Notes: generated from the letters alone by a model not told the origin. Counted from the stretch's first letter, positions 24,529 through 38,959 are shown. The stretch: 64,000 nucleotides of DNA from Planctomycetia bacterium (GCA_030527185.1 JAUNBF010000004.1:30347-94346), one strand, 5' to 3'. Made by a program: numbers and translations.

Positions 24529-25335
24529 TTACTGAACATCAACCAAGGCTTTGGAATAGACCGAACCATTCCCGCGAAGAACCACCCAGCCATGAACCTG
24601 AGTCACTTCCACTCCCCGCGACGTCGAACTATGCCGACTGCTGTCAAATCGCTGTCCCACCCGAACGATTTCCACACTGTTGGGCAACCCCACACTCTCG
24701 CACAACATCTGTGCCCACTGAGCCAGAATCGATTCAAACATCTCGCAATGGTACGGCGCATGAGCATTCCAGCGATAAAATGCCTCCCCCAAATCTTTCA
24801 ACAACAGAACCATCTTTTCTGGTGTCGAAGACTGAAACATCATCAAAAGACCCGCAAAATAACGACTATCCACGTCATTGGCCAGTACCCCCTGCAAAAG
24901 TGCCTGGCGTTCGCCTGCAATTTCGGGAACTCCCATCAGAGATTCGCCAAAAATGGCACTTTCCAGCCCGGATACGGACGCTGCCGGAACAGAAGTGGAG
25001 GTCTGGGAAGGTGGCGACGGAACCGACTCTCGGCCATTGCCAACTCGATTCAACTGTTCTTCCAGACGGCTGAATCGTTCCCACAACGTTTCCCCCAGCA
25101 TCTCTCCCAACGCATCCAAACGCTCTATGACTGGCGAAAGTGCCTGTGAAAAAAGACGTGAATCGATAGCCGTTTCCGAACCACCGGAACCGGTCGCTTT
25201 GCTTTTCCGCTCTTCCTGCTGAAGCAGATAGTCGGCAATCTGTTGTTGGGATTGCGTTAAAAGAGCATACAAACCGCCCAGCGAAACCGAATCCGACACG
25301 GCGTTTTCTTCCAACTTTTTCCATGAAAAGGACAT
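24529..25335 (-). CDS. GrpE-like protein (candidate nucleotide-exchange factor)
   Basis: The N-half is coiled-coil-like (IERLDALGEMLGETLWERFSRLEEQLNRV). The C-terminus VRVGQRFDSSRHSSTSRGVEVTQVHGWVVLRGNGSVYSKALVDV parallels the GrpE beta-domain pattern G..FDP..H......V..V...GY...g.v.R.A.V.V. SD GGGAG lies before ATG 25335. Confidence 0.55.
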   Translation of the reverse strand: MSFSWKKLEENAVSDSVSLGGLYALLTQSQQQIADYLLQQEERKSKATGSGGSETAIDSRLFSQALSPVIERLDALGEMLGETLWERFSRLEEQLNRVGNGRESVPSPPSQTSTSVPAASVSGLESAIFGESLMGVPEIAGERQALLQGVLANDVDSRYFAGLLMMFQSSTPEKMVLLLKDLGEAFYRWNAHAPYHCEMFESILAQWAQMLCESVGLPNSVEIVRVGQRFDSSRHSSTSRGVEVTQVHGWVVLRGNGSVYSKALVDVQ

Positions 25336-25668: not shown

Positions 25669-28485
25669 CTAACCCAACTCAATATTATCCAAACCACCGG
25701 TGTCGAGATAATAACGTTCATCCGCCAGCGTCCGCCAGGTAAAGAAGACGTTTTCTCCCAATACCGCGTCCTGACCTGCCACGATTCCACTGACCGATTC
25801 CACTTCCAGCCCCTCTTCCTGATTTTCGATTGCCTTGTGACGCTTGATTTTGATGGAAACCTGCGTCCGACCAATCCGATCGCCAACGTCCATCTTGATA
25901 ACATAAATCGGCGTGGCCTGGGCTGTTTCCACATCGCTCATCTTGCGACCGATAATCACACGCTGGGAACTGGTCGTGAATTCCGTGATTTCTTCCCGCG
26001 AGCCTTCTTCCGCCGGAGAGAACAAAATCCGCTCCTTCCGAATGCCGCTCGTCGAGTCGCTCATCACGCCCCAGTAATACGTATTCTCTTCCGATTTTCC
26101 CGTCATTTCAAACTTGAACTGTGGCAACATTCCATGCGCTGCCATGAATCCAATCGCCGCACCGACCACCACCGGACTTTTCGGATCGATAATCACACCA
26201 GGAGACATCCCCTTTTCATCCTGATAGGGATACCAGTTTCCCGCGTAGTGGTGGAACATCGGAACAATCCGGGACGGCGAAAGCGGAAGGTACATCCGAA
26301 CCAACTTCTGGATATAACTCAATTTGGAAGGTTGCCCTGCCAGCAAAACGACATCGACTTCATATTCCATACAGCGTTTGCAGAAATCGAACAGCAACTC
26401 GTCGAAAACCTCGTGAACCACCCCCTCAAACTCTGCCTGATGGACATACAGTTCCATATCCTGTTGAAGATTGTAGTAGCCGGGACCACGAAGTTTGTCG
26501 AATGCCTGCTGAAGGGATTCCAGAACCGCCGGATCGATCAGTTCCGGGTCCATGTGATTGATCGGTTCCGTCGTGATTCCCTCCGTCGCCAGCGAAAGAT
26601 AGTGTTGCGTCAACGGAATCAAAAGACGGTTCATCCACATCACTCGCTGGTTCCGAAATTCCCGGTTGCGCGGAACTTCCGGCCCAAAAAGAAGAAGGAC
26701 GTCCTCTTCCTCCATGGCAATGGCATCCCCAAACGCTGGCACAATAATCCGTTCCAACAAACGTTTGGCCAGTTGGTCGCCTGCCAGGGCAATGCCGTCC
26801 TGATGGAGCACTTTGCCACGAACATAGTCGTCAATCTTCGACTCGAAATTGTACTTCGCAATCATCAGGTCGGACGTACCTCCGCCAATATCAATACAGG
26901 CAATGCGGACTTCGTGCTGTTTGTCGCCAAATTCCTCCACTTTATTGGCCGTCGAGCCGCGAACCGCTCCCATCCGACGGCGTGACGCGGGCGAACCCAA
27001 CATCGGAGCGGTATCCACTTTCGGCTCCTCCACTTCCGGCTTGCGACGTTCCTGGTGCAGTGACTCAAACCAAATTCGCGGGTCTTGCCCCAAAAGCCGC
27101 AATTCACTCCAGATGTACGTCAGGTGAACCGCACTCGCCTCGTCAATCGAAAGATTCAACAACGGTTTGACATGCTGGTATTTCCCCAGCGTCAGATTAA
27201 AAATCTCGATCGCCTTTTGGACTTGAGCCTGCAACCGTTCCCGCTCTTCAGGAATCATGCCGCTAGGATACGTCAATGTCAATGTGCGGATTTCCCGCGC
27301 ACGACCAGCATCTCCCGATTGCGTGCGGTACTGAATCGAATTCAGGTACGTGTAAGCCTGCGTCAGAAGTTCGTAAATCGCGGCTGTCATCAGGACTCGC
27401 GGAGCATGTCGCGGTTTCAACGGCATTTCCGGCGCAAAATCGGTCGGTTTCACGCCACTTTCCCGCAGCAGAAAATCGTTGTCGTCCTCATGAATGTATT
27501 TCAACAAAGCTCCGTGCAGCGTCGAACAATACGTCCGCGTTCCCGCGCGGTCATGGGGATCGGCCATGTGCCAGTTGGCGCCTTCCAACCAACTCGAATC
27601 GTCCGCCCACAAATAACGTTTCGGAGAACTAACCCCGGTACGAATATCGTCTGATGTGGCAATCACCTGCAACACATCGTCCGCTTCCTTACCCATACGG
27701 ACTTGCGACAAATCCTCAAACATCGGCGGACGAACCGTCACTTCCACTTTGTTCATCCGCGACTTGCTGCCGCTCCCCCAACTGCTGAACCAACCCTTTT
27801 TCTCGCCCCCCTCATCCACCTGATGATACTCAATTTTCTTCATCGGCATGGGAGAAAGGTACGGCGTGTTGCACCAGTGCGTCTTGGAGGAAAACCAGCG
27901 TGCCGACGGATTCCGAACCGGCTCACCATCGTCGTTCCACGAATCCAGATGATAACGATTCGTCAACTCAAACGGCAACATCTGGGGTGTCTGGGAAATC
28001 TCGCCCGCCACTTCCAGCAACAACGCTCCCGTTCGGCTGTTCCCAAAATCGACCACCATGTGAACATGCTTCGCGTCCCCTGCCGTGGCGGCTGCCGGGC
28101 GAATGCAAATTTCAATCTGCCCCACGCCACGCAAGGGTTGGCCGTTGAGGTCGTGGATATTCTCCAGAACCAACTGGAAATCCCCTGTCAGGGCGTTCGC
28201 GTCGCAAAAATAGCCGACTTCCGGGTCGCCGCACGTCGTGTCCACCGCCAAAAATAGTTTGGACGTCGTTCCCTGAATGATTTGCCATTGGATGAAGGGA
28301 TAGTCCATTCCCGTCGGGGTGGCTGGGGCATTTCCACGTTTCTTACCCCCCGTGTCCGCTTCTTCCGCCAGACCACAGTGACATCGCTGCCAACCATTAC
28401 CGACTTGATGAATATTATAACGTGCCCCTCCCTTCAAGGGAACACACACCACCTGAACTCCGGTATTTGCAAAAAGTACGTACAT
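25669..28485 (-). CDS. Hsp70/actin-fold (ASKHA) ATPase, large, SrfB-like by recollection
   Basis: 938 aa. Phosphate-1 motif VVDFGNSRTG (res ~144-153), connect motif SIDEASAVHLTY (res ~446-457), phosphate-2 motif IDIGGGTSDLMI (res ~531-542) and adenosine-like motif VLLAGQPSKLSYIQ. No Hsp70 substrate-binding domain is recognisable. Confidence 0.75.
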   Translation of the reverse strand: MYVLFANTGVQVVCVPLKGGARYNIHQVGNGWQRCHCGLAEEADTGGKKRGNAPATPTGMDYPFIQWQIIQGTTSKLFLAVDTTCGDPEVGYFCDANALTGDFQLVLENIHDLNGQPLRGVGQIEICIRPAAATAGDAKHVHMVVDFGNSRTGALLLEVAGEISQTPQMLPFELTNRYHLDSWNDDGEPVRNPSARWFSSKTHWCNTPYLSPMPMKKIEYHQVDEGGEKKGWFSSWGSGSKSRMNKVEVTVRPPMFEDLSQVRMGKEADDVLQVIATSDDIRTGVSSPKRYLWADDSSWLEGANWHMADPHDRAGTRTYCSTLHGALLKYIHEDDNDFLLRESGVKPTDFAPEMPLKPRHAPRVLMTAAIYELLTQAYTYLNSIQYRTQSGDAGRAREIRTLTLTYPSGMIPEERERLQAQVQKAIEIFNLTLGKYQHVKPLLNLSIDEASAVHLTYIWSELRLLGQDPRIWFESLHQERRKPEVEEPKVDTAPMLGSPASRRRMGAVRGSTANKVEEFGDKQHEVRIACIDIGGGTSDLMIAKYNFESKIDDYVRGKVLHQDGIALAGDQLAKRLLERIIVPAFGDAIAMEEEDVLLLFGPEVPRNREFRNQRVMWMNRLLIPLTQHYLSLATEGITTEPINHMDPELIDPAVLESLQQAFDKLRGPGYYNLQQDMELYVHQAEFEGVVHEVFDELLFDFCKRCMEYEVDVVLLAGQPSKLSYIQKLVRMYLPLSPSRIVPMFHHYAGNWYPYQDEKGMSPGVIIDPKSPVVVGAAIGFMAAHGMLPQFKFEMTGKSEENTYYWGVMSDSTSGIRKERILFSPAEEGSREEITEFTTSSQRVIIGRKMSDVETAQATPIYVIKMDVGDRIGRTQVSIKIKRHKAIENQEEGLEVESVSGIVAGQDAVLGENVFFTWRTLADERYYLDTGGLDNIELG

Positions 28486-28570
28486 CGTTTTTCTCTATAA
28501 AAAATAAGGTGTCTTGAAAATGTCGTGAATCGTTGAAAAACCATTACATTGTGTCCACGGCTCCCATCGG

Positions 28571-28596
28571 CAATTATCAATTATCAATTATCAATT
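28571..28596 (-). repeat. (TAATTGA)n heptamer repeat, three units, 7 nt after the stop of the P-loop gene
   Basis: The sense strand reads TAG CTTGTCA AATTGA TAATTGA TAATTGA TAATTG CCGATGG. Confidence 0.9.
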
Positions 28597-28603
28597 TGAC
28601 AAG

Positions 28604-31198
28604 CTAGTTCTTTTTCATCTGCGCCAAAATACTTTCAAATGGCTCCAGAATCCGAATCAAATCCTCGTTGCCCGGCGGAATCTGGATATGGTCGCCCGCT
28701 CCCAACGCCAGCGCTTCCGGCAAACGTTCACACCAGCGTTTCACAAACGAGGCTGTCAAACCGTAATTGCCATAATACTCCAACGGCTTTTCATGCGGCT
28801 CTTTCTCGTCATCTTCCACGTCCAACTGCGGCGGGGCAATCGCTTCCTGCGTCGGGCCGGGGTTCATGATGTAGTCTTCCATAATCATCTTCACGTATTT
28901 CCGACGCGCATATCGACGTGCCGCCTCATCCCGTGTCTTCAAATTGACCACCGGACTTAAATCATCTATCAGCGTGTCGATACAATGCTGACTCTGCAAG
29001 TAGTCCCGCAGATACCGCACAAACGTGTTCAAATCGTTCCCGTCCAGCCACGGCGCACCATCGTCATGGCCTTTGGTATAATCTTCCCAACGTTTCGGAA
29101 CCTGTTTGGTCGCCCATTCGTGCAGGAACGCCCGCAGATTCTTCGGCAACGGGTCGCCGTGACGTTTGCCCGTGTCCGCGCAGTCCGCCAACTGCCAGTT
29201 TTCCCCTTCAGGAACACTCAACGCTTCCTGGAGAGCATACACCCTGGCATACGCCGCTTCCGGGTCGTCCGTCAACCAGTTCACCACCCGTTCCGCCGCG
29301 CGTACCCGCTTTTCCCGATCCACGTTCGCGTCCGGGTCCACCACCCAATCCCGTGCCAGCAAAAGGAGGCGATCCAGAACCTGATTGATTTCCATCTCCA
29401 ACTGATTCTGCTTGTCCGTGGCCGTTGTCACCGCTCGAATCCCCGCGGAAATCAGCGAAAGTCCACCGTCGCCATCCGTCATGGCGGTACTCCAGCGTTG
29501 TGCCGGATTGACCATGAAATCCTGAACCATTTCAGATTCCATAAACGCCTTTCCCGCACGAACCCACTTTTCAGGATCATCCGCCTGACGCTGTTCCTCA
29601 TCCGTATCCCACGTTCCCGGATACCGGATCGGATAGGTGTTCGTAAACGCTTTGCCGCGACCACCAAAATCGGTCATCACCGGTCCCAGCGTATCGACCA
29701 ACTGCCGCAGTCGTTGCTGGTACAGACCTTTGTCCGCATATTCCTGACGATTCCGAAATTCCTCATCAATTCCCGTCATTCCAATGAACAACGCGGGCAT
29801 ATCATCCTGCACCTTCGACGGCCAATACTTCTCACCATAACGGGCACGACCCCATTTGTCAATATGGTACTTCATTTGCGAAGTCACTTCCAGGTTGCCG
29901 CCACGCGAAAGAAGAATCAACGTCTGGATCTGCAACTCGTCCGTAAATCGTTCAAACAGGTAAGCCACCTTACCACGTTTGACAATCTCCATCTGCTCTT
30001 CCAGTTTGTCCGCGTCCTGCCGTTTTCCCTGTTCCGCTCCCTGACGTCCGGCTCGCATTCCGGGAATGTCCAGAAAGTCCATCTGCTCGATCACTTTTCG
30101 CCAGTCATCGTTCAATCGGTGCGGCAAAACCGGCAAAACCAGTTCCAACATCGCCGCCTGAATCGTTTCCAGGTCTTCCTCACCATTCCCACTTCCCGGA
30201 ACGTACTCCAGAACGTACCAATCCTTGCGCTGCCGCAAATGGAAATCTGCCCAATCGACCCGCGTAAAACATTTGGAGGTCTTCCGCTCGTGTACCTTCG
30301 CACGCTGCGAATCCAGCAGGAAACGAACCCCCGCCCAGTGTACCAGAATCGCTGGCTCGTGCGACGCGGAAAGTTTTTCCAGAAATTTATTGATTCGGAC
30401 AAACAGACCATTCAACGTTGACCAACCACCCCAGAAAATCTGCCCAGCCGCGTGAATGTATCCCTCCTCCGAAAGCGGATAACGACTCAAAAGAGCGTTC
30501 AGAATCGCTTCTTTCGTCGGAAATCCGCGTCGATCCACCGTCCGCATGTACGAATACGCGTCGAGAATGTCCATCCGCCAGCGTCGATCCACGCTCGTGC
30601 CGGGATATTGCCGGGAAACGTCTTCCAACATCTTCTCCAAATGCGGCTCGTCCCACGGAAAGTCCATCCCACGGCATTCCACCTGAAATCCACGTGCCAG
30701 CACACGAATCCACTCCACTCGCGTCAGGGCCTTCACCATCACCGGATATTCCGGCGAAACGCTTTCCGCAATACGGTCTTTCGTGGTAAATCGCGTTACC
30801 AGTGCCGTGGCTTCATTGGAACCACTTTGCGGATTCAGGTCGTTGTTGAAAGACAAGTCCTTATAATATGCCGGTTCGCCATGAGCCTCGTCCCGACCCA
30901 GAGGGCTGAACTGCTCGCTCTGAGCACGCAAAACCTGGCCCATGAAAAGACTTTTTCCCACCTGTGACGGACCATAAACTGCCGCCGCGACAGGAACTTT
31001 TGACGAGGTATAAAGACTGCGTGCCAGACGCCTCAACTGGAGAACCTCAAATTCGTCGCTCTCCGCAATCGGTAATAAATCAAGTTTCCGACGGTCGCTG
31101 TTGTACTCCGCAAGCCAATCACAAATCTCTGTCGCCAGATTCTCCACACGTTCTGCCTGTCGAATGATCTGACGATCCCGTTCATCTGGAAATCCCAT
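28604..31198 (-). CDS. Large P-loop NTPase (GTPase-like), SrfC-like by recollection
   Basis: 864 aa. Walker A AVYGPSQVGKSLF (res 73-85, nt ~30953-30976). DxxG-type motif FLDIPGMRAG. The remainder is helical. No signal peptide or TM. Confidence 0.7.
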   Translation of the reverse strand: MGFPDERDRQIIRQAERVENLATEICDWLAEYNSDRRKLDLLPIAESDEFEVLQLRRLARSLYTSSKVPVAAAVYGPSQVGKSLFMGQVLRAQSEQFSPLGRDEAHGEPAYYKDLSFNNDLNPQSGSNEATALVTRFTTKDRIAESVSPEYPVMVKALTRVEWIRVLARGFQVECRGMDFPWDEPHLEKMLEDVSRQYPGTSVDRRWRMDILDAYSYMRTVDRRGFPTKEAILNALLSRYPLSEEGYIHAAGQIFWGGWSTLNGLFVRINKFLEKLSASHEPAILVHWAGVRFLLDSQRAKVHERKTSKCFTRVDWADFHLRQRKDWYVLEYVPGSGNGEEDLETIQAAMLELVLPVLPHRLNDDWRKVIEQMDFLDIPGMRAGRQGAEQGKRQDADKLEEQMEIVKRGKVAYLFERFTDELQIQTLILLSRGGNLEVTSQMKYHIDKWGRARYGEKYWPSKVQDDMPALFIGMTGIDEEFRNRQEYADKGLYQQRLRQLVDTLGPVMTDFGGRGKAFTNTYPIRYPGTWDTDEEQRQADDPEKWVRAGKAFMESEMVQDFMVNPAQRWSTAMTDGDGGLSLISAGIRAVTTATDKQNQLEMEINQVLDRLLLLARDWVVDPDANVDREKRVRAAERVVNWLTDDPEAAYARVYALQEALSVPEGENWQLADCADTGKRHGDPLPKNLRAFLHEWATKQVPKRWEDYTKGHDDGAPWLDGNDLNTFVRYLRDYLQSQHCIDTLIDDLSPVVNLKTRDEAARRYARRKYVKMIMEDYIMNPGPTQEAIAPPQLDVEDDEKEPHEKPLEYYGNYGLTASFVKRWCERLPEALALGAGDHIQIPPGNEDLIRILEPFESILAQMKKN

Positions 31199-31330: not shown

Positions 31331-34300
31331 TTAATCCACACGTTTAATCATTCCGCCTATTCTGAAATTATACGGATATTTCTGAATGTTGCTACCCCCC
31401 GCAGTCCGCGATTCGATAATCAGGGTATATTGATCGTTTCGCCCGCGATACGCAATGGCCGGGCTGGAAAGGAGTACATTCAGACCATCCGCCCCAGGGG
31501 TGCCTGCCACCCAGACTTCCGGGGGGGCCGTATTCGCCTCGTAAACGCGATATTCCAACGCCCCTTCGCCCTGGCTGGCCGAAACGGAAAGCGTGACCGT
31601 GAAGTCGTTGGCATTTTCGTTCAACTGACCATCCACACTCAGATAACGTTCCCCCGCCACCGCCACCGTAGCGTACAATTCCTGCCCGCCATACGCGGCG
31701 CGAATCTGGCTCTTGCCCAGCGAAACCGCCCGGAAGCGGGATGGATCGAGGCTGTCCTGCTGCAAAATCGTCTCATCCGTCGAACTTATCGTGGCGCTGA
31801 CCGGGAAACTCTGCCCTGTTTCGTCGCGTGCCGTGACCACAAACGACGGCGTCGTTTCGCCCACCCGCAGCGTAATATCCATCGGCGAAAGCGACAGTTG
31901 CAACGGCTTCGTCACCGTGACCGGAACATACGTTGTCAAATTGTCGTAAACTCCTTGCGGATCGATCGAACTGACTTGCAAACGTGCCGTTCCGGGAGCA
32001 TTGGCACGAATCGTGTTTCCTTCCACGCTGACCACTCCCGCGTTCTCCACCACACTCACACGATACGCCACATCCATCGGCATCATTCCCGACGACGGCA
32101 TCACTCGCACCGAATCAAACGTCATGGTATTTCCCACGCTCATTTCAAGCGCTCCGGGCAGAACTGCCAAAATGGCTCCTTCCGCAGCCACGTTCCCCAC
32201 CTGAACGAACAGCGGCAATGCCGTCCGGTCGCCCAGTTGAGCGCTGACACGTCCTGTCCCCTCCTTGCCGTTGGGAACGAGCCGATAAATCCCGTTTTCG
32301 CCCCGTTCCAGCGTGAAGAGCGACGAACTGCTGCTCAACTCCAGACCAGGATCCGCCGAAACATCCCGCCCCGGCCGCCCGTCCGAGTATTCCTCCAAAA
32401 TCTGGAGCGGAACCGCCCCCGACGTTTGGGAAAGACGCATCGACGCCGGATTGAACCGCAATCCTGTCACCGAGCCAATCGAGTAACCATCCGTCGTCAC
32501 GTAGTCCACCGCACGATCTCCGAAAACGTCGGTACTGGTAACGCCATGATAACCTCCGTCCAGAATCGTATCTCCCGTCCGGTACGTTACCGCCGCGTTG
32601 GGATCGACATATGCCGACTCCACCGAAACCGGAATCGCCGACACTTCGACCACCTCAATCGTCCCTTCCGAAACCAGACCCGCAAAACGTGCCACGACGT
32701 TCGTCTTACCCACCGTCTTGCCGAAAATCATATTTCCCTGAACGACCGCGATATTCGGGTCTGCCGTTGTAAGCTGCAACCCCGTTTCCGGCTGGAGAAC
32801 GTACAGCCGCCCGCCACGCAACGCCGTCACCTGATACGCCCGACCTTCGCCCACAGCCACCGTTGTGTGTACCGGATCAATCGCCAGATTCGTGTACGGA
32901 TTGTCGTCCACCTCCACGCTTACCGCACGTTGCAAACGATTTTCCCAGTCAATCTGCACCGTCGCTTTCCCTGCCGCAACCGCTTCGACGCTTTGGATAC
33001 CGTTCATCTTCGCCGCGTTGCCATCGACCGAAACTTTCAACTTCGGTTGGGCAAAGAGCGGACGCAGACCACTGTTGCTGCGACCCTGAATGAAGAGGTT
33101 GGAGCGATCTCCCGTCGACATCCGAATCGCCCCCGGTTCCACCACCAGTTCCGAAATCGGATGTTCATCGACCGTAATCGTCGCCTTGCCTGCCTTCCCT
33201 TTTCCGGTAATTTCAGGAATCATCACCGAAATCTCCACCGGGCCGCCCGGTTTCAATCCACACAATTGCAGCCCGCGAACTTCGCAGACCGTCGAATCAC
33301 CACTTCGGAAAACCGCACTGGCGGTGCGTTCCAGCCGCACCGTCCGGTCTTTCGATACCGCGTAAACCCGCAGTTCCGTCGCCTGACCTGCCGAAATCGT
33401 GCTGTTGGCAGGTTCGACAAGAATCTCCCCTTCCTCACGCAAAAGCGTCAACGTTTCCTGATCCACGCCGCCGACAATCACTCGCATCGTCGCTTTTTTG
33501 TCCGCCATCGTGAAAATCACGTCCGTCGCGCCCGGCGTTTTGCCTACCAGTGCGTGACGTGCCGCGTCGTACTCGCAAATGCCCGGCACAAGCGGCGTCA
33601 CTTTGCACTGCATACTGAAATCGACGTTCCCGCGAATCAACGCAAAATCTTTCCCGACCAGCTTGCTTTCGCCGACCATCATCTTGATCACATTGTCGGT
33701 GGGACCCAGTTTTTCGTCAATCGTCGCCACCACTTCCACGGCAGCAGGAGCACTCGTGATTCCCTGCAATTCCGCCGTGATTCCCGCTTTTCCCAGAGCC
33801 ACGGAAGTCGTCACCGGTCCCTGCGGCGCGGCCACTGCCGGATCACTCGATTTCCAGACGATATTTCCCATGGAGGTCAACACGCCGACCGATTTTTTCT
33901 CCTTGTAGCCATGCAACTGGAATGTCACCGTCTCACCCGGCAACATCCGAATATCTTTTTCCGGCACCAACCGCAATTCGTCGATATCGACCGTTTCCGT
34001 CACGTTGAGTGTCAAAGGCGGCTCCTCACTGTCCACCCCTTTGTACTCCGCGATAAACGTCACTTTCCCCGGCTTGGCCGCGACCAACTCACCGTTGGAG
34101 GGGCTGACAATCGATTTATCTCCGGCAATGGCGTGTAAATTCGCGTCCTTGGTGACAATCCGCACAAATCCGTCGGGGTACTCCGCCTCCACACGATAAT
34201 CGACGTATTTCGCCCCCACCGGCATGGAAACTTCCGTCCCGCTGTTACTGATAATCCGCACCGCTGACGGTTCTCCTTCCCGTGGAGCCGGTTTTTCACC

Positions 34301-37300
34301 TGGCACGAACGGATCCATCGTCTGCGTCCAAAAACGAACCATCCGATCTCCCACGTTGGCCTGAAGCCACTGAATATGCCCCGGTTTGAGCGCTTCGAGT
34401 ACCGGAGCCGTCCAAACGACCGATTCTCCTTCAAAATCAGGCATCCACCGGACATTCGGAGCCGGTTCCTCCACCTCCCCTTTCCGCATCCAGATCGAAT
34501 AGGCCTGTGACGCACCTGTCGGCAAAAGTTTTCCGCCCGGTTCCCGTTTCACAAAAAGCTCCACCTCCGGGTCGGCAGGATTCAGCGTGGGCGTCCCCAC
34601 CGTAATCCGACATTCCGCCGTTTTGCCGCGATATTGGGCACGAAGTGTGAAAACACCGCTCTCTTCCCCCGCCACTTCCGCCGATGGTCGCAAAAGCCCG
34701 GACGGAGCACGCCAGAAGAGCTTCTCCGGCACCTTCCACAAAACTTTTTCCGGCAAAACTTCCGTAAACGTTTCCGAACCCTCCAACTGCTCTTCCACCG
34801 CCAAAGAAATCGACTGTCCCGGTGCGAGCGTCACTTCCGAAGGTACGACGCGAAGTGTCTGTGGAGGATTCGTGGCCGTGACGGTCACACGTGCCTGAGC
34901 CGGATTTTTCAAATAAGGCAAAAACGAAGCGGATACATCAAACGGTTCGGAAGCCTGCTTCCCAAACAAAAGAGGACTCTGCCACTGCACCGCGTCCCGA
35001 TTTCCAAAGGAATAGTACACCCCCGGAGACTCCATCGCCACGCTCCACTCGCTCTCCTCCCCCTCCCCGGCATCGGGATTTCGACCTTCCAACATCAGTT
35101 CCAACGGAGCCACTTCCCCAACTGCCACCTGCACATCCGTCGGCTGCCAGTAAAGTCGGGCATTTCGTGGATGAACCACCCGTAAATCGACGCTGGCCGG
35201 ATTTTCCGAAGCAGGGTGTTCCGCAGTCAAGGTGGCTGTGCCTGCCGCGACCGCCTTGTAAGCTCCCCTATTTTCCCCCGCGACCGCCACCACTTCCGCG
35301 TTGCCAGAGGCATATTTTCCCACATTCGGCACCAGTTCCACATCCCCCTGAGCCGTTTTTCCCGTCAAAATCGCCATTCCCGGTTCGCCCGCCACACGCA
35401 GCGACCGATCCACCTCCAACGCCAACATCACCTCCGCTCGTTCCACCGTCGTCAACTCCGCGTGATTCGACTCCGTTCCCAGATAATTCCCCCAGATATT
35501 GACCGGCCCGGCCCCCACATCAAGTGCCATCGCCTTGCCATGGACAAAGTCGAAACCTTCCACTTCGTCGGGCAGGGGATTCGTGTTCCACTGCATTCGG
35601 GTGTACGGAACGAGCGTACTCACACCATCACCATACGTTGCCCAACCGTCAAACGTCTGGCACAGTCCCAACGGCAAAGCCACTTTCCCTCCCGGACGGA
35701 TTTCCAGCCGCATCGGCGCTGGAATCACCTGCACAGACGAGGCTTTTTTCTGTCCCTGGTACGAGAAAACAATCTGTTGCGGGTCGTCCTGTGTCGTCGG
35801 ATTCAGCCCACGAATTCCCATGCGGCGAAAGTCCATCCCGGCGTAACGAACGTTCGGCAACGACTCCGCTCGAACAGCACCGGTATCCAGTGCGTAAAAC
35901 CGCGACGCTCCACATCGGGCAAAAAATTCCGGGCAAATCTCATGATCCACCGCCACGGCTGCCACGGGAGGATACATCATCAGCCCATCCGCTTTCAATG
36001 CTGCCACCGTCACGGGAAGCGTGATTTCCTGCGTCCCATCCGTCACGGTAATTTCCGCCGACCCCGCCTTTTTTCCAATCAGATAACGATTCTTTTCCAC
36101 CCGCACCACATTCGGCTGGCTGCTGGTGACGCTCACCGCCGACTCGTCCCCGCAAATCCACGACAACGGGTATTTCTGATCCACCGCCAGCGTAATCTGA
36201 GCTTCTTTCCCCGCAGGATAGACACGCAATCGCGCGTCGGTTGCCTTCTGTTCAATTGTCAAAACCGTCTCTGCCGTCTGTATCACCGTGGCTGCCGGAG
36301 TGCCGTCGGTCAGTGCGACCTGCAATCGCCCCGTTCCACTCTGCAACGTTCGCAGATGATTCCCGCCGTAGCGTGCCATGGCAGGAGGGTCGATCCCCCA
36401 CTGCAAATGCGACGACCCGGTAAATTCGTACTTTTCCCCCTCCGCCGTCCTGCCGAAAACCTGGAGACCAACCTTTTTCCCCACAGGCAACGTCGCCGTT
36501 CCCAACGCAATTTCCAGCGACGTGATGGCTGCCGTGCCGACACTCACCGTGGCCGACGCGTCCATCCAGCTATCCTGCGGCGTGGCGCGGTAGCGGGCGG
36601 AAATCGTACTTTCCCCCGGCTGCAAACCTTCGACAAAACCTTGGTAAAAATAGACCGTTCCATCATTTTTGGCATTCCAGTCCGCCGCGTTCGACAACTC
36701 ACTGATCCGGCCATCCTCCCATTCCCCCATCAGCCGCACCTGAGCCGTGGAACCATCCGCCAGCGTCAAGTGTTCCGGTTCCAGCCAAATCCGTTGGGGA
36801 TTGACCGCCGCCGCAACCGTCACCGGGACGCTCTTCCGCCGCCAGCCGTGAAAAAAGTGAATCTTCGTCTCCCCTTCGCTGCACGCCAGGGCTGTTCGTG
36901 AATCTTCCTGAAAAAAAGCTATCGTCGGGTCTTCCACCGCCTGAAGCACACGGTCCGTCACATCTTCCGACAGGAAAAAGCCAAAACCGTCCCATCCCGG
37001 CGTGATGACACGGAACGTTGCCGTTGCCCCGACACTCGTTTTCCACGGCCCCGGAACCACTTTCAGCGTCAATTGATTCCACAGAACCCACCCCGCCAAA
37101 AACAACAGAAACAACACCGCCAGAATTCGGCGATTTCTTCGGCGAGCAGCCTCCCGTGCCTTCCGTTTGGCTGTCGGAACTTTCAGACAAATCGGACAAC
37201 GTGCTTTTGCTCCTGGCAGACGGACGTACAACTCGTTACATGCCTCATCGTCACAAATCAACGGCGTGCCGAACTCCTGATGAATCGGATGGTAGCCTGG

Positions 37301-37753
37301 AATCCAGACCAGACGCCACAATCCGCCCGCGTCCTGGTACTTGAAAAAATAGTATGTCCGATCCGGCCGTCGTTTGTTTTCGATCAAATCCTGAAATTCT
37401 TCCGACAATTTCTGGTAGAGAATCTTCTCCGTCGTCGAGGAGGGCTTGATCCGCTCAAAACGCAATTGTAATCGTTCGATCTCACTCGATAACTTTTCGT
37501 TCAAATCTTCATTATTGACCGTCGTGCAGGTTATCTCTTCAATCCGCCCACCCTGGTCGTTCCGAATATAAAAAGAGAGAATTTCGCCATTTTCATCCCA
37601 TTCCGGTTCCGGGGTCATGCCGCCAAACCATCGAAACAGAATCCGATCGTTGGCGTTCGTGGGATCGAAAAGAGGGCAACCAGGTTCCAGTGCCACGGGA
37701 CGGAAGAATTGTCCAGATTCCGAAAGATTGATACGTACAAACGCTTTGGCCAT
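31331..37753 (-). CDS. Giant single-pass membrane protein: cytoplasmic N-domain with zinc ribbon, TM helix, ~1900 aa of Big_2-like Ig repeats
   Basis: 2140 aa. C167/C172..C186/C189 (CDDEAC..CPIC). Basic stretch KRKAREAARRRNRR then TM ILAVLFLLFLAGWVLW (nt ~37076-37129). Many repeats end in motifs like GKKAGSAEITVTDG and GKAGITAEL, typical of bacterial Ig-like group 2 domains. Confidence 0.85.
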   Translation of the reverse strand: MAKAFVRINLSESGQFFRPVALEPGCPLFDPTNANDRILFRWFGGMTPEPEWDENGEILSFYIRNDQGGRIEEITCTTVNNEDLNEKLSSEIERLQLRFERIKPSSTTEKILYQKLSEEFQDLIENKRRPDRTYYFFKYQDAGGLWRLVWIPGYHPIHQEFGTPLICDDEACNELYVRLPGAKARCPICLKVPTAKRKAREAARRRNRRILAVLFLLFLAGWVLWNQLTLKVVPGPWKTSVGATATFRVITPGWDGFGFFLSEDVTDRVLQAVEDPTIAFFQEDSRTALACSEGETKIHFFHGWRRKSVPVTVAAAVNPQRIWLEPEHLTLADGSTAQVRLMGEWEDGRISELSNAADWNAKNDGTVYFYQGFVEGLQPGESTISARYRATPQDSWMDASATVSVGTAAITSLEIALGTATLPVGKKVGLQVFGRTAEGEKYEFTGSSHLQWGIDPPAMARYGGNHLRTLQSGTGRLQVALTDGTPAATVIQTAETVLTIEQKATDARLRVYPAGKEAQITLAVDQKYPLSWICGDESAVSVTSSQPNVVRVEKNRYLIGKKAGSAEITVTDGTQEITLPVTVAALKADGLMMYPPVAAVAVDHEICPEFFARCGASRFYALDTGAVRAESLPNVRYAGMDFRRMGIRGLNPTTQDDPQQIVFSYQGQKKASSVQVIPAPMRLEIRPGGKVALPLGLCQTFDGWATYGDGVSTLVPYTRMQWNTNPLPDEVEGFDFVHGKAMALDVGAGPVNIWGNYLGTESNHAELTTVERAEVMLALEVDRSLRVAGEPGMAILTGKTAQGDVELVPNVGKYASGNAEVVAVAGENRGAYKAVAAGTATLTAEHPASENPASVDLRVVHPRNARLYWQPTDVQVAVGEVAPLELMLEGRNPDAGEGEESEWSVAMESPGVYYSFGNRDAVQWQSPLLFGKQASEPFDVSASFLPYLKNPAQARVTVTATNPPQTLRVVPSEVTLAPGQSISLAVEEQLEGSETFTEVLPEKVLWKVPEKLFWRAPSGLLRPSAEVAGEESGVFTLRAQYRGKTAECRITVGTPTLNPADPEVELFVKREPGGKLLPTGASQAYSIWMRKGEVEEPAPNVRWMPDFEGESVVWTAPVLEALKPGHIQWLQANVGDRMVRFWTQTMDPFVPGEKPAPREGEPSAVRIISNSGTEVSMPVGAKYVDYRVEAEYPDGFVRIVTKDANLHAIAGDKSIVSPSNGELVAAKPGKVTFIAEYKGVDSEEPPLTLNVTETVDIDELRLVPEKDIRMLPGETVTFQLHGYKEKKSVGVLTSMGNIVWKSSDPAVAAPQGPVTTSVALGKAGITAELQGITSAPAAVEVVATIDEKLGPTDNVIKMMVGESKLVGKDFALIRGNVDFSMQCKVTPLVPGICEYDAARHALVGKTPGATDVIFTMADKKATMRVIVGGVDQETLTLLREEGEILVEPANSTISAGQATELRVYAVSKDRTVRLERTASAVFRSGDSTVCEVRGLQLCGLKPGGPVEISVMIPEITGKGKAGKATITVDEHPISELVVEPGAIRMSTGDRSNLFIQGRSNSGLRPLFAQPKLKVSVDGNAAKMNGIQSVEAVAAGKATVQIDWENRLQRAVSVEVDDNPYTNLAIDPVHTTVAVGEGRAYQVTALRGGRLYVLQPETGLQLTTADPNIAVVQGNMIFGKTVGKTNVVARFAGLVSEGTIEVVEVSAIPVSVESAYVDPNAAVTYRTGDTILDGGYHGVTSTDVFGDRAVDYVTTDGYSIGSVTGLRFNPASMRLSQTSGAVPLQILEEYSDGRPGRDVSADPGLELSSSSSLFTLERGENGIYRLVPNGKEGTGRVSAQLGDRTALPLFVQVGNVAAEGAILAVLPGALEMSVGNTMTFDSVRVMPSSGMMPMDVAYRVSVVENAGVVSVEGNTIRANAPGTARLQVSSIDPQGVYDNLTTYVPVTVTKPLQLSLSPMDITLRVGETTPSFVVTARDETGQSFPVSATISSTDETILQQDSLDPSRFRAVSLGKSQIRAAYGGQELYATVAVAGERYLSVDGQLNENANDFTVTLSVSASQGEGALEYRVYEANTAPPEVWVAGTPGADGLNVLLSSPAIAYRGRNDQYTLIIESRTAGGSNIQKYPYNFRIGGMIKRVD

Positions 37754-38040
37754 GAGTTTTATCCATTAACGATTTTAATAGCTTGTCATAATTCCTGTCC
37801 ATCCTCCTCGAATCTCCTTCCCTGGAGCCAAAAAAGGTGACTTTCGATAGGAAGTCGGGGAATGGACAGAACTCCCTGATGAGTGAAAAAAAGGAATACT
37901 CTTTATAGCTTAACTCTTTACCCCGAAAATTTCAAGAACGTTCCTCCCAATTTTGCCAAAATTTTTGAAAATTTTTGAGACTTCCTCCCCACTCTTCCGC
38001 TTTCTTGCCAAAATTTTCACAACTTCCGCTTTCCGTATGC

Positions 38041-38068
38041 TTGACGTGAGGAAAAAATCACTTAAAAT
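38041..38068 (+). promoter_or_regulatory. Candidate promoter TTGACG-16-TAAAAT for the SDR gene
   Basis: TTGACG 38041-38046 and TAAAAT 38063-38068. ATG at 38153. Confidence 0.4.
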
Positions 38069-38152
38069 AGAACTGGATTCTGTGTTTAAAAACTCCTCAG
38101 AGTTTCTATCCCCCCGATAGAACTCTCTTGAATACGAAAGGGAAAAACTTCC

Positions 38153-38959
38153 ATGAGTGAAAAACGAAAACCTCTGGCTGTCGTCACTGGTGCATCCAGT
38201 GGTCTGGGAATGTGTTTTGCACGTCAATTGGCCGCGGAAGGATACGATTTGCTTCTCGTTGCCCGACGTGGTTTTGTGCTGGAGTCGCTCAAAGAAGAGC
38301 TGGAAAGGCTCTACCCCATTGCCGTCGAAACGTTTGAGGCCGACCTTTCCGAAAAAGAACCTCTGCGTGAATTGGAAAAAAAGATCGAGTCGAGCGAAAA
38401 TCTCCTCTACCTCATCAACAATGCCGGGTTCGGAACGGGAGAAAGCTCTTTTCCCAACGTCGATGTCGAACAGGAAACGCGAATGCTGGCTCTGCACAAT
38501 CTTGCCCCGATGCGGTTGTGTCGGGCGGCGCTGATTCCCATGGCGGTCAATAATATGGGATACATCATCAACGTCGCTTCTGCTGCGGCCTTTCTCGCCT
38601 CTCGTGGGGCTGCCGATTACAGTGCCACGAAAGCGTTCCTCGTCTCTTTTTCTCGTGGGTTGCAGTGTGACTGTATCGACAAAGGGGTTCATGTCCAGGC
38701 TCTTTGCCCAGGATTTGTCCGTACCGGTTTTCATCAGTCCGAAACGATGAAAAATAGCGGTACTGGGGAAAAAGTGCCCCACTGGCTCTGGCTGGAAGCA
38801 CCCTGGGTCGCGCAGAAGTCTTTGCGGCAGGCGCGAAAAAAATATCTTCGACGGGTGGCCTATGTTCCTTCCCTACGATATAAAATAATCGTTGCGTTTC
38901 TTGCTTCCCGATGGTTGTCGCCACTGCGTGTTCTGCTGTCTTGCGGACGTGCCCGATAA
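38153..38959 (+). CDS. Short-chain dehydrogenase/reductase (SDR) family oxidoreductase
   Basis: AVVTGASSGLG cofactor motif, NNAG, and YSATKAF catalytic Y-x3-K. Confidence 0.9.
   Translation: MSEKRKPLAVVTGASSGLGMCFARQLAAEGYDLLLVARRGFVLESLKEELERLYPIAVETFEADLSEKEPLRELEKKIESSENLLYLINNAGFGTGESSFPNVDVEQETRMLALHNLAPMRLCRAALIPMAVNNMGYIINVASAAAFLASRGAADYSATKAFLVSFSRGLQCDCIDKGVHVQALCPGFVRTGFHQSETMKNSGTGEKVPHWLWLEAPWVAQKSLRQARKKYLRRVAYVPSLRYKIIVAFLASRWLSPLRVLLSCGRAR

Follow-up and report, generated by a model that had tools for sequence, protein, structure and literature searches.

What is the role of a 2140-aa protein made of a soluble head, one transmembrane helix and a long array of Ig-like domains, and encoded just upstream of two cytoplasmic NTPases? 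This question is raised by a locus of a gut planctomycete, which lies within the window (the whole stretch of DNA analysed, 64,000 nucleotides) and which the initial annotation described as coding for a giant Big_2 protein with an 'inverted topology'. The analysis reported here suggests that the protein is probably the planctomycete counterpart of SrfA, i.e. of the bitopic protein that anchors the SrfB/SrfC system to the membrane. The N-in position of the head was correctly recognized, but it is no oddity of an adhesin, since the same plan is normal for the SrfA system.

In part directly and in part through strong indirect evidence, the product of the gene is established as a membrane protein with one transmembrane helix, which separates a small, predicted zinc-binding head in the cytoplasm from an array of about 20 Ig-like domains beyond the cytoplasmic membrane. 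The gene and its parts are:

31331-37753, minus strand: ORF of 2140 aa
37274..37753, minus strand: head, soluble alpha/beta domain, aa 1-160 (from the AF2 model and the family profile)
37178..37273, minus strand: zinc-ribbon-like element, aa 161-192, C167-x4-C172 ... C186-P-x-C189 (from Cys conservation and the AF2 model)
37127..37177, minus strand: basic stop-transfer stretch, aa 193-209, AKRKAREAARRRNRR (from the K/R count)
37070..37126, minus strand: single transmembrane helix, aa 210-228, ILAVLFLLFLAGWVLWNQL (from hydropathy)
31643..37069, minus strand: extracytoplasmic stalk, aa 229-2037, built of some 19-20 divergent ~90-aa Ig-like modules of the Big_2 type (from jackhmmer tiling)
31334..31642, minus strand: conserved C-terminal tip, aa 2038-2140 (from family conservation)

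The annotation as a single 2140-aa protein was borne out, as the gene is one continuous ORF with an ATG start and an unbroken reading frame. Because all the homologues open with the residues MA[KT]xF at position 1, the start of the ORF is correct, and the head is not an ORF of its own. The head family comprises 290 clusters (50% identity), independently assembled genomes included, and since the head is found at residue 1 in every one of them it is not mis-joined either; the concern that the N-terminal 205 aa could be a misannotated separate ORF has thus been dispelled. The length of the protein falls between 2005 and 2250 aa in 47 of 61 loci. The 2140-aa protein has neither an N-terminal signal peptide nor a C-terminal sorting or anchoring signal.

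The head was modelled with confidence by AF2 (pLDDT 91.5, pTM 0.81), and its family motifs are MAxRFxRxDLS, AEPEW and FFKYRDxxGxWRLVWCWGYQR. The head encoded in the window has no match in Pfam, NCBIfam or PADLOC, and the fold search that had been proposed for it, performed with Foldseek, returned weak matches to HipA/HipT-type kinases (E > 0.01). The zinc ribbon annotated from CDDEAC..CPIC proved to be a conserved four-cysteine element within a soluble head of ~190 aa: conservation among 28 family heads reaches at least 90% for each of Cys167, Cys172, Cys186 and Cys189 (one lineage has lost them), and in the AF2 model the four are placed on two beta hairpins (E163-166 and E174-178). The element gave weak, non-significant matches to zinc-binding Cox5B and to RING fingers. 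The head therefore appears to carry a Cys4 zinc ribbon, with two knuckles on beta hairpins, for which metal binding is predicted. Cys4 zinc ribbons are typical of the reducing cytoplasm.

With a 19-residue Kyte-Doolittle mean of 2.08, aa 210-228 are the sole strong hydrophobic segment of the protein; just one other segment exceeds 1.4, and it is weak and lies within an Ig module. Of the 15 residues that precede the helix nine are K/R, against two of the 15 that follow it. The same bias is found in the family (means of 4.9 and 1.6 K+R, respectively, with more before the helix in 153 of 164 members), and all the full-length relatives have the helix at aa ~201-217. The topology was called from hydropathy and the positive-inside rule, which support an N-in, C-out signal anchor, in agreement with the cytoplasmic N-terminus previously deduced from the Arg/Lys-rich stretch and the single helix. 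Planctomycetes are diderm, and the ectodomain would therefore lie in the periplasm if it does not traverse the outer membrane. Hence, of the annotated exposure of the Ig array at the cell surface, the location outside the cytoplasmic membrane holds, while exposure at the surface itself would require such a crossing. A reversed topology, with the N-terminus out, or a head mis-joined from another ORF found no support and is hardly credible: the first is contradicted by the charge bias in those 153 members and would imply export of a folded 200-aa zinc-binding domain without a signal peptide, which is implausible, and the second by the continuous frame and by the fusion of the head at residue 1 throughout the family.

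The Big_2 label given to the Ig-like domains is valid at the level of the family profile, but not for the 2140-aa protein alone, whose match to Pfam Big_2 is marginal (12.7 bits, E 0.12, cut-off 22.8). A repeat HMM was built over the family by jackhmmer iteration from aa 506-590. Its consensus matches Pfam Big_2 (PF02368) with an E-value of 6.7e-7 and 29.6 bits, above the gathering score of 22.8, and precomputed matches to Big_2 or HL_N-beta (PF21461) are found in most homologues; it is from these profiles that we infer the Ig fold of the stalk. The HMM tiles aa 227-2037 with 19 units of ~90 aa (14 with E <= 1e-9, and one more with E 2e-6), interrupted by an atypical, unmatched stretch of ~90 aa (aa 590-680) and by a ~55-aa linker (aa 1707-1763). 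If the unmatched stretch and the C-terminal tip are added to the 19 units, the annotated 'about 20' is a fair count of the predicted beta-sandwich modules.

Orthologues from Pirellulales align colinearly from end to end (35% identity over ~2180 columns), and each module has its best match in the module at the same position of the 35%-identical orthologue. Scores to the orthologous module are 81-222, compared with a mean of 30 and a maximum of 63 among modules within the 2140-aa protein. To judge from these comparisons, the Ig array is ancient, its modules are orthologous position by position and its length is nearly fixed. In 93 family members, which range from 484 to 2312 aa, the sequence ends with the last Ig module and the tip; the latter shows the motifs LEYRvy..G..p..W, L.SP, Y.L.iEaR and YP..Frl. 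It has no match in Pfam, and its matches in the PDB are confined to non-significant ones to Ig variable domains. The tip profile is not similar to that of the C-terminal lipocalin of SrfA (hhalign E 0.21).

The genes around the giant gene are as follows:

38153-38959, plus strand: short-chain dehydrogenase, the real upstream gene (PF00106, 4.7e-36)
37754..38152, no strand: gap of ~400 bp between the divergent dehydrogenase and giant genes, which presumably contains the promoter of the latter (from the orientation of the flanking genes)
28604..31198, minus strand: SrfC-like P-loop NTPase, 864 aa (PF10139 Virul_Fac, 1.4e-53)
25669..28485, minus strand: SrfB-like ATPase, 938 aa (PF07520 SrfB, 2e-79)
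24529..25335, minus strand: conserved 268-aa partner (no family match)
21924..24497, minus strand: 857-aa zinc-ribbon/IDR/propeller protein (PF13360, PF13570)

A 290-aa ORF at 37910-38782 (minus strand) has no matches and an odd composition.

The downstream genes had been annotated as NTPases, which they are, but their identity as SrfC-like and SrfB-like had been missed. The SrfC-like protein has a Walker A motif, GPSQVGKS, at aa 76, and in the SrfB-like protein a phosphate-loop motif of the actin/Hsp70 type, DxGxS/T, occurs twice, at aa 146 and aa 532; the maximum 19-residue Kyte-Doolittle means of these proteins are 0.86 and 1.48, respectively, and none of the four partner proteins of the operon has a hydrophobic segment. 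The 268-aa partner has no match in Pfam, NCBIfam or PADLOC; tblastn detected related sequences in six more loci, and a gene for ~290-320 aa follows SrfB in L003, L004 and L006. The 857-aa protein consists of an N-terminal Cys4 zinc ribbon, a low-complexity region of ~440 aa rich in G/P/N/Q and a PQQ/BamB-like beta-propeller, and neither sequence nor hydropathy indicates a transmembrane helix or a signal peptide; a PQQ-type propeller gene also closes the cluster in the same three loci. When the five operon proteins were compared with PADLOC, no match was found except a non-significant one of PDC-M61B to SrfB (E 0.009).

In the window, the giant gene is followed on the same strand by the SrfC-like and then by the SrfB-like gene (order A-C-B), and the same five-gene set is present in related loci with 30-72% identity. 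SrfC lies at most 1.5 kb downstream in 50 of the 57 related loci with enough flanking sequence, and is not adjacent in the remaining seven. Among 61 related genomes, 21 contain the head family, 22 SrfB and 20 both, so that the two occur together in 20 of the 23 genomes having either; the other three are 68-82% complete. The annotated tie to the downstream NTPases is therefore substantiated, as a functional tie, by synteny and by co-occurrence across genomes, and we infer that the giant protein is also physically linked to them.

The seven loci without a downstream SrfC, and in particular L035, where the giant gene adjoins recR and rpoN, could nevertheless be taken to mean that the neighbourhood reflects co-regulation only, and that the protein works on its own, as an adhesin of the envelope or surface or as an S-layer-like fibre, with an N-terminal signal anchor. 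Big_2 arrays are typical of adhesins, and the stalk agrees with this reading. We regard it as decidedly unlikely, because it would leave the conserved, folded ~190-aa cytoplasmic head with no role, and because co-occurrence with SrfB is nearly perfect and SrfB is retained where the locus is split: in L035 the same contig carries SrfC-SrfB at a distance of ~26 kb, and the three other genomes checked in which adjacency is lost, those of L033, L038 and L093, keep SrfB elsewhere. Individually orthologous modules and a nearly fixed length are also unlike the variable, recently amplified repeats of many adhesins, and a C-terminal sorting or anchoring signal is missing.

A trans-envelope signalling receptor akin to anti-sigma factors or sensors, whose zinc head would hold or regulate a cytoplasmic factor and free it upon a signal at the stalk or tip, with SrfB and SrfC as downstream effectors that are not docked, is an unlikely alternative, if slightly less so than the adhesin. 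An NCBIfam anti-sigma model gives weak matches to four of 28 heads (best E 1.4e-6), which probably stem from the ribbon and the transmembrane helix, but the window's own head is not one of the four. Genes for an ECF sigma factor, a Ser/Thr kinase or a PP2C phosphatase lie upstream in L003, L004 and L007, and published Srf neighbourhoods include the TagQRST/PpkA signalling genes (PMC3608642). However, the upstream genes vary among loci, whereas SrfC and SrfB are constant, and in the window no sigma factor, kinase or phosphatase gene stands beside the operon.

Because the NTPases encoded downstream are SrfC-like and SrfB-like, the giant protein occupies the slot of SrfA. SrfA is bitopic, with an N-terminal cytoplasmic docking domain (SrfA-N), a transmembrane helix at ~208-251 and a periplasmic domain, and AF3 models place SrfB, and then SrfC, on SrfA-N (bioRxiv 10.64898/2026.09.18.752743). 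Several observations count against the protein being its counterpart: there is no sequence-level homology to SrfA-N, the gene order is A-C-B rather than A-B-C, and SrfC is not adjacent in the seven loci mentioned above. The SrfA model NF040486 found nothing, even at E <= 10, in the window's head and 28 family heads, while the positive controls scored 557 bits (Rahnella SrfA), 78.9 (Cereibacter SrfA-slot protein) and 86.5 (head of a Runella S8 fusion). When the head was compared with SrfA-N by hhalign, the E-value was 0.07-0.3 whether or not secondary structure was added, so that homology is not demonstrable by sequence.

It is conceivable, then, that the head is a convergent replacement of SrfA-N, i.e. 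an unrelated zinc-ribbon domain recruited as the membrane adaptor of SrfB/SrfC, with the same function and a different ancestry. The lack of a sequence signal (NF040486 silent although its controls work, hhalign E 0.07-0.28), the lack of a zinc ribbon in canonical SrfA-N and the different gene order would all agree with this, and we consider it possible, if doubtful. Against it, the two heads align colinearly over 142-147 columns when hhalign includes secondary structure (E 0.21), and the most conserved motifs coincide: MAKxF at residue 1, AEPEW with AIPQPNE, and WG[YF] at the end of a hairpin. The models of the head and of Rahnella-type SrfA-N (AF2, pLDDT 77) show the same elements in the same order and at nearly the same positions, with shared strands at 49-52 and 58-62/63, a long helix at 81-101 in the head and 77-102 in SrfA-N, a further helix at 107-125 and 107-121, respectively, and a final hairpin ending in WGY and WGF. 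Both models also retrieve weak kinase-like matches from Foldseek (E > 0.01), HipT 8ezr_B being in both lists; the fold of SrfA-N is that of a degenerate, protein-kinase-like alpha/beta domain. It should be noted that this comparison of folds consists of secondary-structure order and weak Foldseek matches.

If the giant protein is indeed the counterpart of SrfA, its head would act in the manner suggested for canonical SrfA-N and dock two cytoplasmic enzymes at the membrane, namely the SrfB-like ATPase with its actin/Hsp70 fold and the SrfC-like P-loop NTPase, and the 268-aa and zinc-ribbon/IDR/propeller proteins would be further cytoplasmic partners. The rigid stalk would set the distance of the tip from the cytoplasmic membrane at roughly 70-80 nm, considering that the invasin rod measures ~3.6 nm per Ig module and that there are ~20 modules, and the tip might bind a component of the envelope, e.g. 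the outer membrane or the wall. With the NTPases docked on the head and the envelope reached by the stalk-borne tip, the assembly could couple envelope contact to nucleotide-driven machinery in the cell, by inward sensing or outward force. In this way, with the giant protein replacing SrfA, the poorly understood SrfB/SrfC NTPase system would gain a testable layout across the cell envelope.

A bolder and rather unlikely version makes the protein a fixed-length, periplasm-spanning tether, a ~70-80-nm rod of about 21 position-specific Ig modules with its tip on the outer membrane or wall and its head on a dynamin-like NTPase and an Hsp70/actin-like ATPase. The planctomycetal periplasm is unusually large. 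If this were true, the planctomycete Srf system would be a trans-envelope mechanical or distance-sensing machine, which might determine or gauge how wide the periplasm is, or else power the remodelling of the cytoplasmic membrane, and the shorter stalks of other lineages (538-1960 aa) would track other envelope dimensions.

Among known systems, EssB (type VII secretion) and the zinc-binding anti-sigma factors likewise combine a cytoplasmic pseudokinase-like or zinc-binding domain, a single transmembrane helix and an extracytoplasmic domain, and the cytoplasmic fragment of EssB is among the weak Foldseek matches of SrfA-N; however, there is no significant similarity, and the window contains neither T7SS genes nor a sigma factor gene. 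Giant Big_2 adhesins (invasin/intimin type; BapA/SiiE-like) share the long tandem rod of Big_2-type beta-sandwiches and a distinct terminal domain. In contrast to them, the planctomycete protein lacks a signal peptide, beta-barrel or T1SS export signals and a C-terminal anchor, is anchored N-in in the cytoplasmic membrane, on whose inner side it has a conserved domain, and has modules that diverged anciently and are orthologous by position, whereas those of many adhesins were recently amplified.

Closer in plan is a fusion on a plasmid of Runella sp. SP2 (Bacteroidota, L009:13955-16552), an S8 peptidase encoded after SrfB-SrfC in which a true SrfA-N head (NF040486 86.5 bits; hhalign probability 96.6%, E 6.6e-10) is followed by a transmembrane helix and the protease. 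Like the planctomycete protein, it has a cytoplasmic head, one helix, a large lineage-specific periplasmic module and SrfB/SrfC nearby, but its head is recognizable as SrfA-N, its module is a subtilase instead of an Ig rod, and its gene follows srfC. Since this peptidase bears an SrfA-N head, heads of the SrfA type carry varied periplasmic modules.

Canonical SrfA (NF040486; plasmid of the soil bacterium Rahnella victoriana, L010:6660-8021) differs in the absence of significant sequence similarity and of the Cys4 zinc ribbon added to the planctomycete head, and in a periplasmic part that is a ~120-aa lipocalin-like barrel with four Cys (FLNGxW motif) in place of ~1900 aa of Ig modules and a new tip. 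Its system includes vWA, Lol-like ABC and SUMF1 genes where the planctomycete has the 268-aa and zinc-ribbon/IDR/propeller proteins, and its gene order is A-B-C. The two proteins are nevertheless alike in being encoded beside srfB and srfC, in the succession of a cytoplasmic N-domain of ~130-200 aa, a basic or disordered linker, a single transmembrane helix (~205-250) and a C-terminal part in the periplasm, and in the predicted secondary-structure order of the head, with its N-terminal MAKxF and WG[FY] hairpin.

The 2140-aa protein (P0001) of the initial annotation is encoded by a single uninterrupted ORF, and its soluble N-terminal domain, basic stretch and single transmembrane helix were borne out; the strand, previously unstated, is minus. 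It is the first of five co-oriented genes, with the following features and neighbours:

31331-37753, minus strand: giant gene, a continuous ATG-initiated ORF encoding 2140 aa
aa 210-228 of the giant protein: transmembrane segment ILAVLFLLFLAGWVLWNQL, the sole strong hydrophobic segment (mean 2.08, 19-residue Kyte-Doolittle scan)
First gene after the giant gene, same strand: SrfC-like protein, 864 aa, PF10139 (Virul_Fac), E 1.4e-53
After SrfC, same strand: SrfB-like protein, 938 aa, PF07520, E 2e-79
After SrfB, same strand: 268-aa protein with no matches
21924-24497, minus strand: 857-aa protein, last gene of the operon, with an N-terminal Cys4 zinc ribbon (CSKCGG...CPQCG) and a PQQ/BamB-like beta-propeller
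Beyond the 857-aa gene: DHDPS gene
38153-38959, plus strand: short-chain dehydrogenase (SDR, PF00106, 4.7e-36), the real upstream gene, divergent from the operon

A 290-aa ORF at 37910-38782 on the minus strand was rejected as a sixth operon gene, and is regarded as a spurious shadow ORF, because the plus-strand SDR gene covers the region.

The N-terminal region preceding the membrane helix, hereafter the head, defines a large family. A phmmer search with aa 1-240 against 1.84 billion representative proteins returned 290 clusters at E <= 1e-3, 255 of them at E <= 1e-10, and query residue 1 was paired with target residue 1 in almost all the matches listed. This N-terminal position rules out a mis-joined ORF, and thereby disposes of the concern that the N-terminal 205 aa might be a separate ORF. 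An alignment of 28 heads revealed the conserved blocks MAxRFxRxDLS, ALEPGxPLLD, AEPEW and FFKYRDxxGxWRLVWCWGYQR, as well as four cysteines (Cys167, Cys172, Cys186 and Cys189, arranged CxxxxC...CPxC) that are each at least 90% conserved and are lost in one lineage. The AF2 model built on this alignment (pLDDT 91.5, pTM 0.81) comprises a mixed alpha/beta domain (aa 1-156), two hairpins bearing the Cys pairs (aa 163-178) and a single long helix (aa 195-229) formed by the basic stretch and the membrane segment. The head had no match in Pfam, NCBIfam or PADLOC, and its best 17 Foldseek matches in the PDB were all HipA/HipT-type kinases, at weak scores (E 0.015-1, TM ~0.2).

Nine K/R residues occur in the 15 residues preceding the helix (AKRKAREAARRRNRR) and two in the 15 following it. 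The same bias was found among the 164 family members with a clear helix (mean K+R 4.9 in the 15 residues before vs 1.6 after), the N-terminal side being the richer in 153. No signal-peptide-like stretch was found at the N-terminus of the giant protein. Because of this charge bias, the lack of a signal peptide and the putative Cys4 metal site, which would be typical of the cytoplasm, the N-in/C-out topology suggested by hydropathy and the positive-inside rule is favoured over the alternative that the topology has been misassigned; a cytoplasmic N-terminus and an extracytoplasmic Ig array had also been proposed in the initial annotation. Planctomycetes are diderm, and therefore the 'outside' of the giant protein would be periplasmic.

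When the giant protein was searched alone, Pfam gave HL_N-beta, a T2SS pilus-N match and Ig_TMEM132 near aa 536-583, with Big_2 marginal (E 0.12). A jackhmmer profile started from aa 506-590, with iterations across full-length relatives, tiled aa 227-2037 with 19 units of ~90 aa, fourteen of them at E <= 1e-9 and one further at E 2e-6. The profile consensus matched Pfam Big_2 at 6.7e-7 (29.6 bits, above the cut-off of 22.8), and precomputed Big_2 or HL_N-beta matches are present in most homologues. The predicted figure of about 20 Ig-like domains is therefore fair, while the Big_2 identity holds at the profile level but not for the single protein. The whole protein aligns end to end with its Pirellulales orthologues, at 35% identity over ~2180-2230 columns, and each module best matches the module in the same position of the orthologue P0026 (scores 81-222), whereas modules compared with one another inside P0001 reach a mean score of 30 and a maximum of 63. 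This position-wise orthology, together with the low within-protein scores, rules out a recent repeat expansion.

The last ~185 aa consist of the final Ig module and a ~105-aa domain, the tip (aa 2038-2140), with the motifs LEYRvy..G..p..W, L.SP, Y.L.iEaR and YP..Frl. Final module and tip are conserved, and C-terminal, in 93 family members ranging from 484 to 2312 aa. The tip had no match in Pfam and, by hhalign, no link to the lipocalin-like C-terminus of SrfA (E 0.21); PDB sequence searches with SrfC, SrfB, head and tip returned nothing significant. In the species-representative genome collection, 61 loci carry both head and tip, at a head-to-tip span of 538-2250 aa; the span is 2005-2250 aa in 47 of them, with a mode of ~21 modules. 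Genuine short forms, each followed by SrfC, include a 566-aa ORF (locus L044, head-to-tip 538 aa) and a 1012-aa ORF (L058), and an 882-aa form (L007) is also followed by SrfC. Members of intermediate length cannot be dismissed as mere fragments: they begin with the head, at residue 1, end with the tip, and sit in loci that continue with SrfC (L044, L058, L062, L087, L088 and L098). The design is thus a head, a transmembrane helix, a lineage-specific stalk (mostly of ~21 modules) and a conserved tip.

At six loci of long-read 'MFD' MAGs (L049, L057, L060, L070, L075 and L086), the head-bearing ORF ends after 247-951 aa, and the tip or the SrfC gene is found 3-6 kb downstream of the head (~6 kb except in L049). 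These short ORFs are probably frameshift errors or pseudogenes of long-read assemblies rather than true short forms, the frameshift appearance of all but L049 resting on the position of the tip ~6 kb downstream of the head. Two MAGs contain two head genes each (L056 and L073; L081 and L095): a long gene of 2215 or 2009 aa is accompanied by a short one of 1075 or 884 aa, which has no adjacent SrfC within the available flanking sequence.

As regards the partners, the SrfC-like protein carries a Walker A motif (GPSQVGKS, aa 76), and the SrfB-like protein two actin/Hsp70-type phosphate loops (DFGNSRTG, aa 146; DIGGGTSD, aa 532). In the 857-aa protein, whose ribbon is the second zinc ribbon of the operon besides that of the head, a ~440-aa G/P/N/Q/M-rich low-complexity region separates ribbon and propeller, and neither signal peptide nor transmembrane helix was found. 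No hydrophobic segment was found in any of the four partners, which are therefore expected to be cytoplasmic. The SrfC-SrfB intergenic region (28486-28603) contains a (TAATTGA)n heptamer run at 28571-28596.

A Pirellulales MAG (L003), a contig from a JGI metagenome (L004) and a relative at 72% identity (L006) share the gene set of the operon. In 50 of 57 loci, the start of SrfC is no more than 1.5 kb from the tip. Of 61 related genomes, 21 carry the head family, 22 carry SrfB and 20 carry both; the three discordant genomes are 68-82% complete. An autonomous adhesin was considered as an alternative and is unlikely in view of this co-occurrence. In a goat-duodenum Thermoguttaceae MAG (L035), the operon is split: recR and rpoN come next after the 2140-aa gene, a GrpE-like relative occurs ~4 kb downstream, and SrfC-SrfB are found ~26 kb from the giant gene on the same 229-kb contig (L035/L105). 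SrfB is likewise kept in all three other checked genomes in which SrfC is not adjacent to the giant gene. In several distant relatives (L003, L004 and L007), genes for a Ser/Thr protein kinase, a PP2C phosphatase or an ECF sigma factor lie immediately upstream of the giant gene, whereas none adjoins the operon of the window. They recall the PpkA/TagQRST genes that have been reported beside srfABC in host-associated Deltaproteobacteria (PMC3608642). A role in anti-phage defence (PADLOC, PHROG-type) was rejected: the operon had no PADLOC match, and the nearby GmrSD and WYL genes are set apart from it by arg genes and the SDR gene.

The genome collection contains 101 relatives, all of them Planctomycetota (Thermoguttaceae and Pirellulales) apart from one 'Nealsonbacteria' record that is probably a binning error, and the nearest relatives come from goat, deer and stool MAGs. 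In the genome sample, the gene is single-copy in 13 of the 14 genomes of the same genus, and was found in 7 of 23 other genera of the family and in 2 of 24 other families of the order. A head search of a phylum-wide sample gave 0 of 300, a weak negative with nine candidates scored per genome; the search among related genomes and the scan of the genome collection carry more information. Our literature search found no paper linking SrfB with planctomycetes.

The domain anatomy is thus demonstrated, as are the conservation of head, transmembrane helix, stalk modules and tip and the synteny and co-occurrence with SrfC and SrfB. SrfB and SrfC would be docked on the head, as they are on canonical SrfA in the published AF3 models. 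With the invasin value of ~3.6 nm for each Ig module, the extended rod might measure roughly 70-80 nm, and the tip may bind a putative ligand in the outer envelope. Either a signal passed inward or a force exerted outward would be compatible with such a layout; an anti-sigma-like receptor was also considered and is unlikely. What the initial annotation observed was confirmed, and its interpretation was supported in part.

For 25 years SrfA, SrfB and SrfC have carried the annotation "virulence factors" with no mechanism behind it, and one group has reportedly described a toxin. A 2026 preprint makes the case that SrfA is a membrane-anchored scaffold, the canonical protein comprising a ~130-165-aa degenerate kinase-like N-terminal domain (SrfA-N), a disordered linker, a transmembrane segment at ~208-251 and a periplasmic lipocalin-like domain; the AF3 models presented there place SrfB, then SrfC, on SrfA-N (10.64898/2026.09.18.752743). 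As yardsticks for the SrfA slot, only environmental bacteria were used, namely plasmids of soil Rahnella victoriana (L010), river Cereibacter (L008) and freshwater Runella (L009). The SrfA-slot protein of Rahnella, annotated 'SrfA family protein', matched the NCBIfam SrfA profile NF040486 with 557 bits, that of Cereibacter with 78.9 bits and the N-terminus of a Runella S8 peptidase with 86.5 bits. The Runella head matched SrfA-N by hhalign (probability 96.6%, E 6.6e-10) and is followed by a transmembrane helix and then a subtilase, and therefore SrfA-type heads are modular carriers of differing periplasmic domains. It should be noted that on this plasmid (Runella sp. SP2 pSP2_1, L009:7828-16552) SrfB-SrfC precede the peptidase, with no separate srfA, and that the cluster directly follows a BREX system (pglZ, brxL) and a restriction endonuclease, and one may ask whether certain Srf cassettes are mobilised as part of defence islands.

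The planctomycete head had no match to NF040486, and thus falls outside that family. Comparisons with SrfA-N (profile against single sequences, profile against profile, and hhalign with DSSP strings, in global or low-MAC modes) gave non-significant E-values of 0.07-0.28, and cross hmmsearch 2-5 non-significant bits. Nor did the Runella head provide a bridge: its homologue search returned only itself, and it did not match the planctomycete head, though SrfA-N matched. In the AF2 models, the order and positions of secondary structures are nearly identical (SrfA-N, 15 sequences, pLDDT 77: E4-10, H24-37, E49-52, E58-63, E69-71, H77-102, H107-121, E128-131, E134-137; planctomycete head: E6-9, (E17-23), H34-46, E49-52, E58-62, E76-78, H81-101, H107-125, E136-140, E146-150). 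hhalign with DSSP strings gave a colinear alignment of 142-147 columns (E 0.21), pairing MAKxF at residue 1, AEPEW with AIPQPNE and WRLVWCWGY with PVLTFWGF, and SrfA-N, too, found only weak kinase-like Foldseek matches (MPS1, CDK6, the PAN3 pseudokinase, EssB and HipT). A convergent adaptor was considered as a less probable alternative. In our reading the head corresponds to SrfA-N in position and architecture, and is probably related to it by very remote homology, at non-significant sequence scores, with an added zinc ribbon.

The most fitting description of the giant protein is a new form of SrfA-type membrane anchor, specific to planctomycetes, whose giant Ig stalk was fixed anciently. SrfB and SrfC are thus retained as a pair in a phylum that is free-living or commensal, and are tied there to an anchor whose outer part is an Ig rod of ~1900 aa ending in a conserved tip. 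This layout suits a secreted toxin poorly and a machine coupling cytoplasm and envelope better, so that calling the system a 'secreted toxin/effector' seems inapt in this planctomycete lineage. The analysis defines two unannotated domain families, head and tip, and reveals no new kind of system, yet gives a clear trans-envelope geometry to the unexplained Srf system. It points to a general rule, in which a small cytoplasmic docking head and one transmembrane helix carry a lineage-specific periplasmic module (lipocalin, S8 protease or Ig rod).
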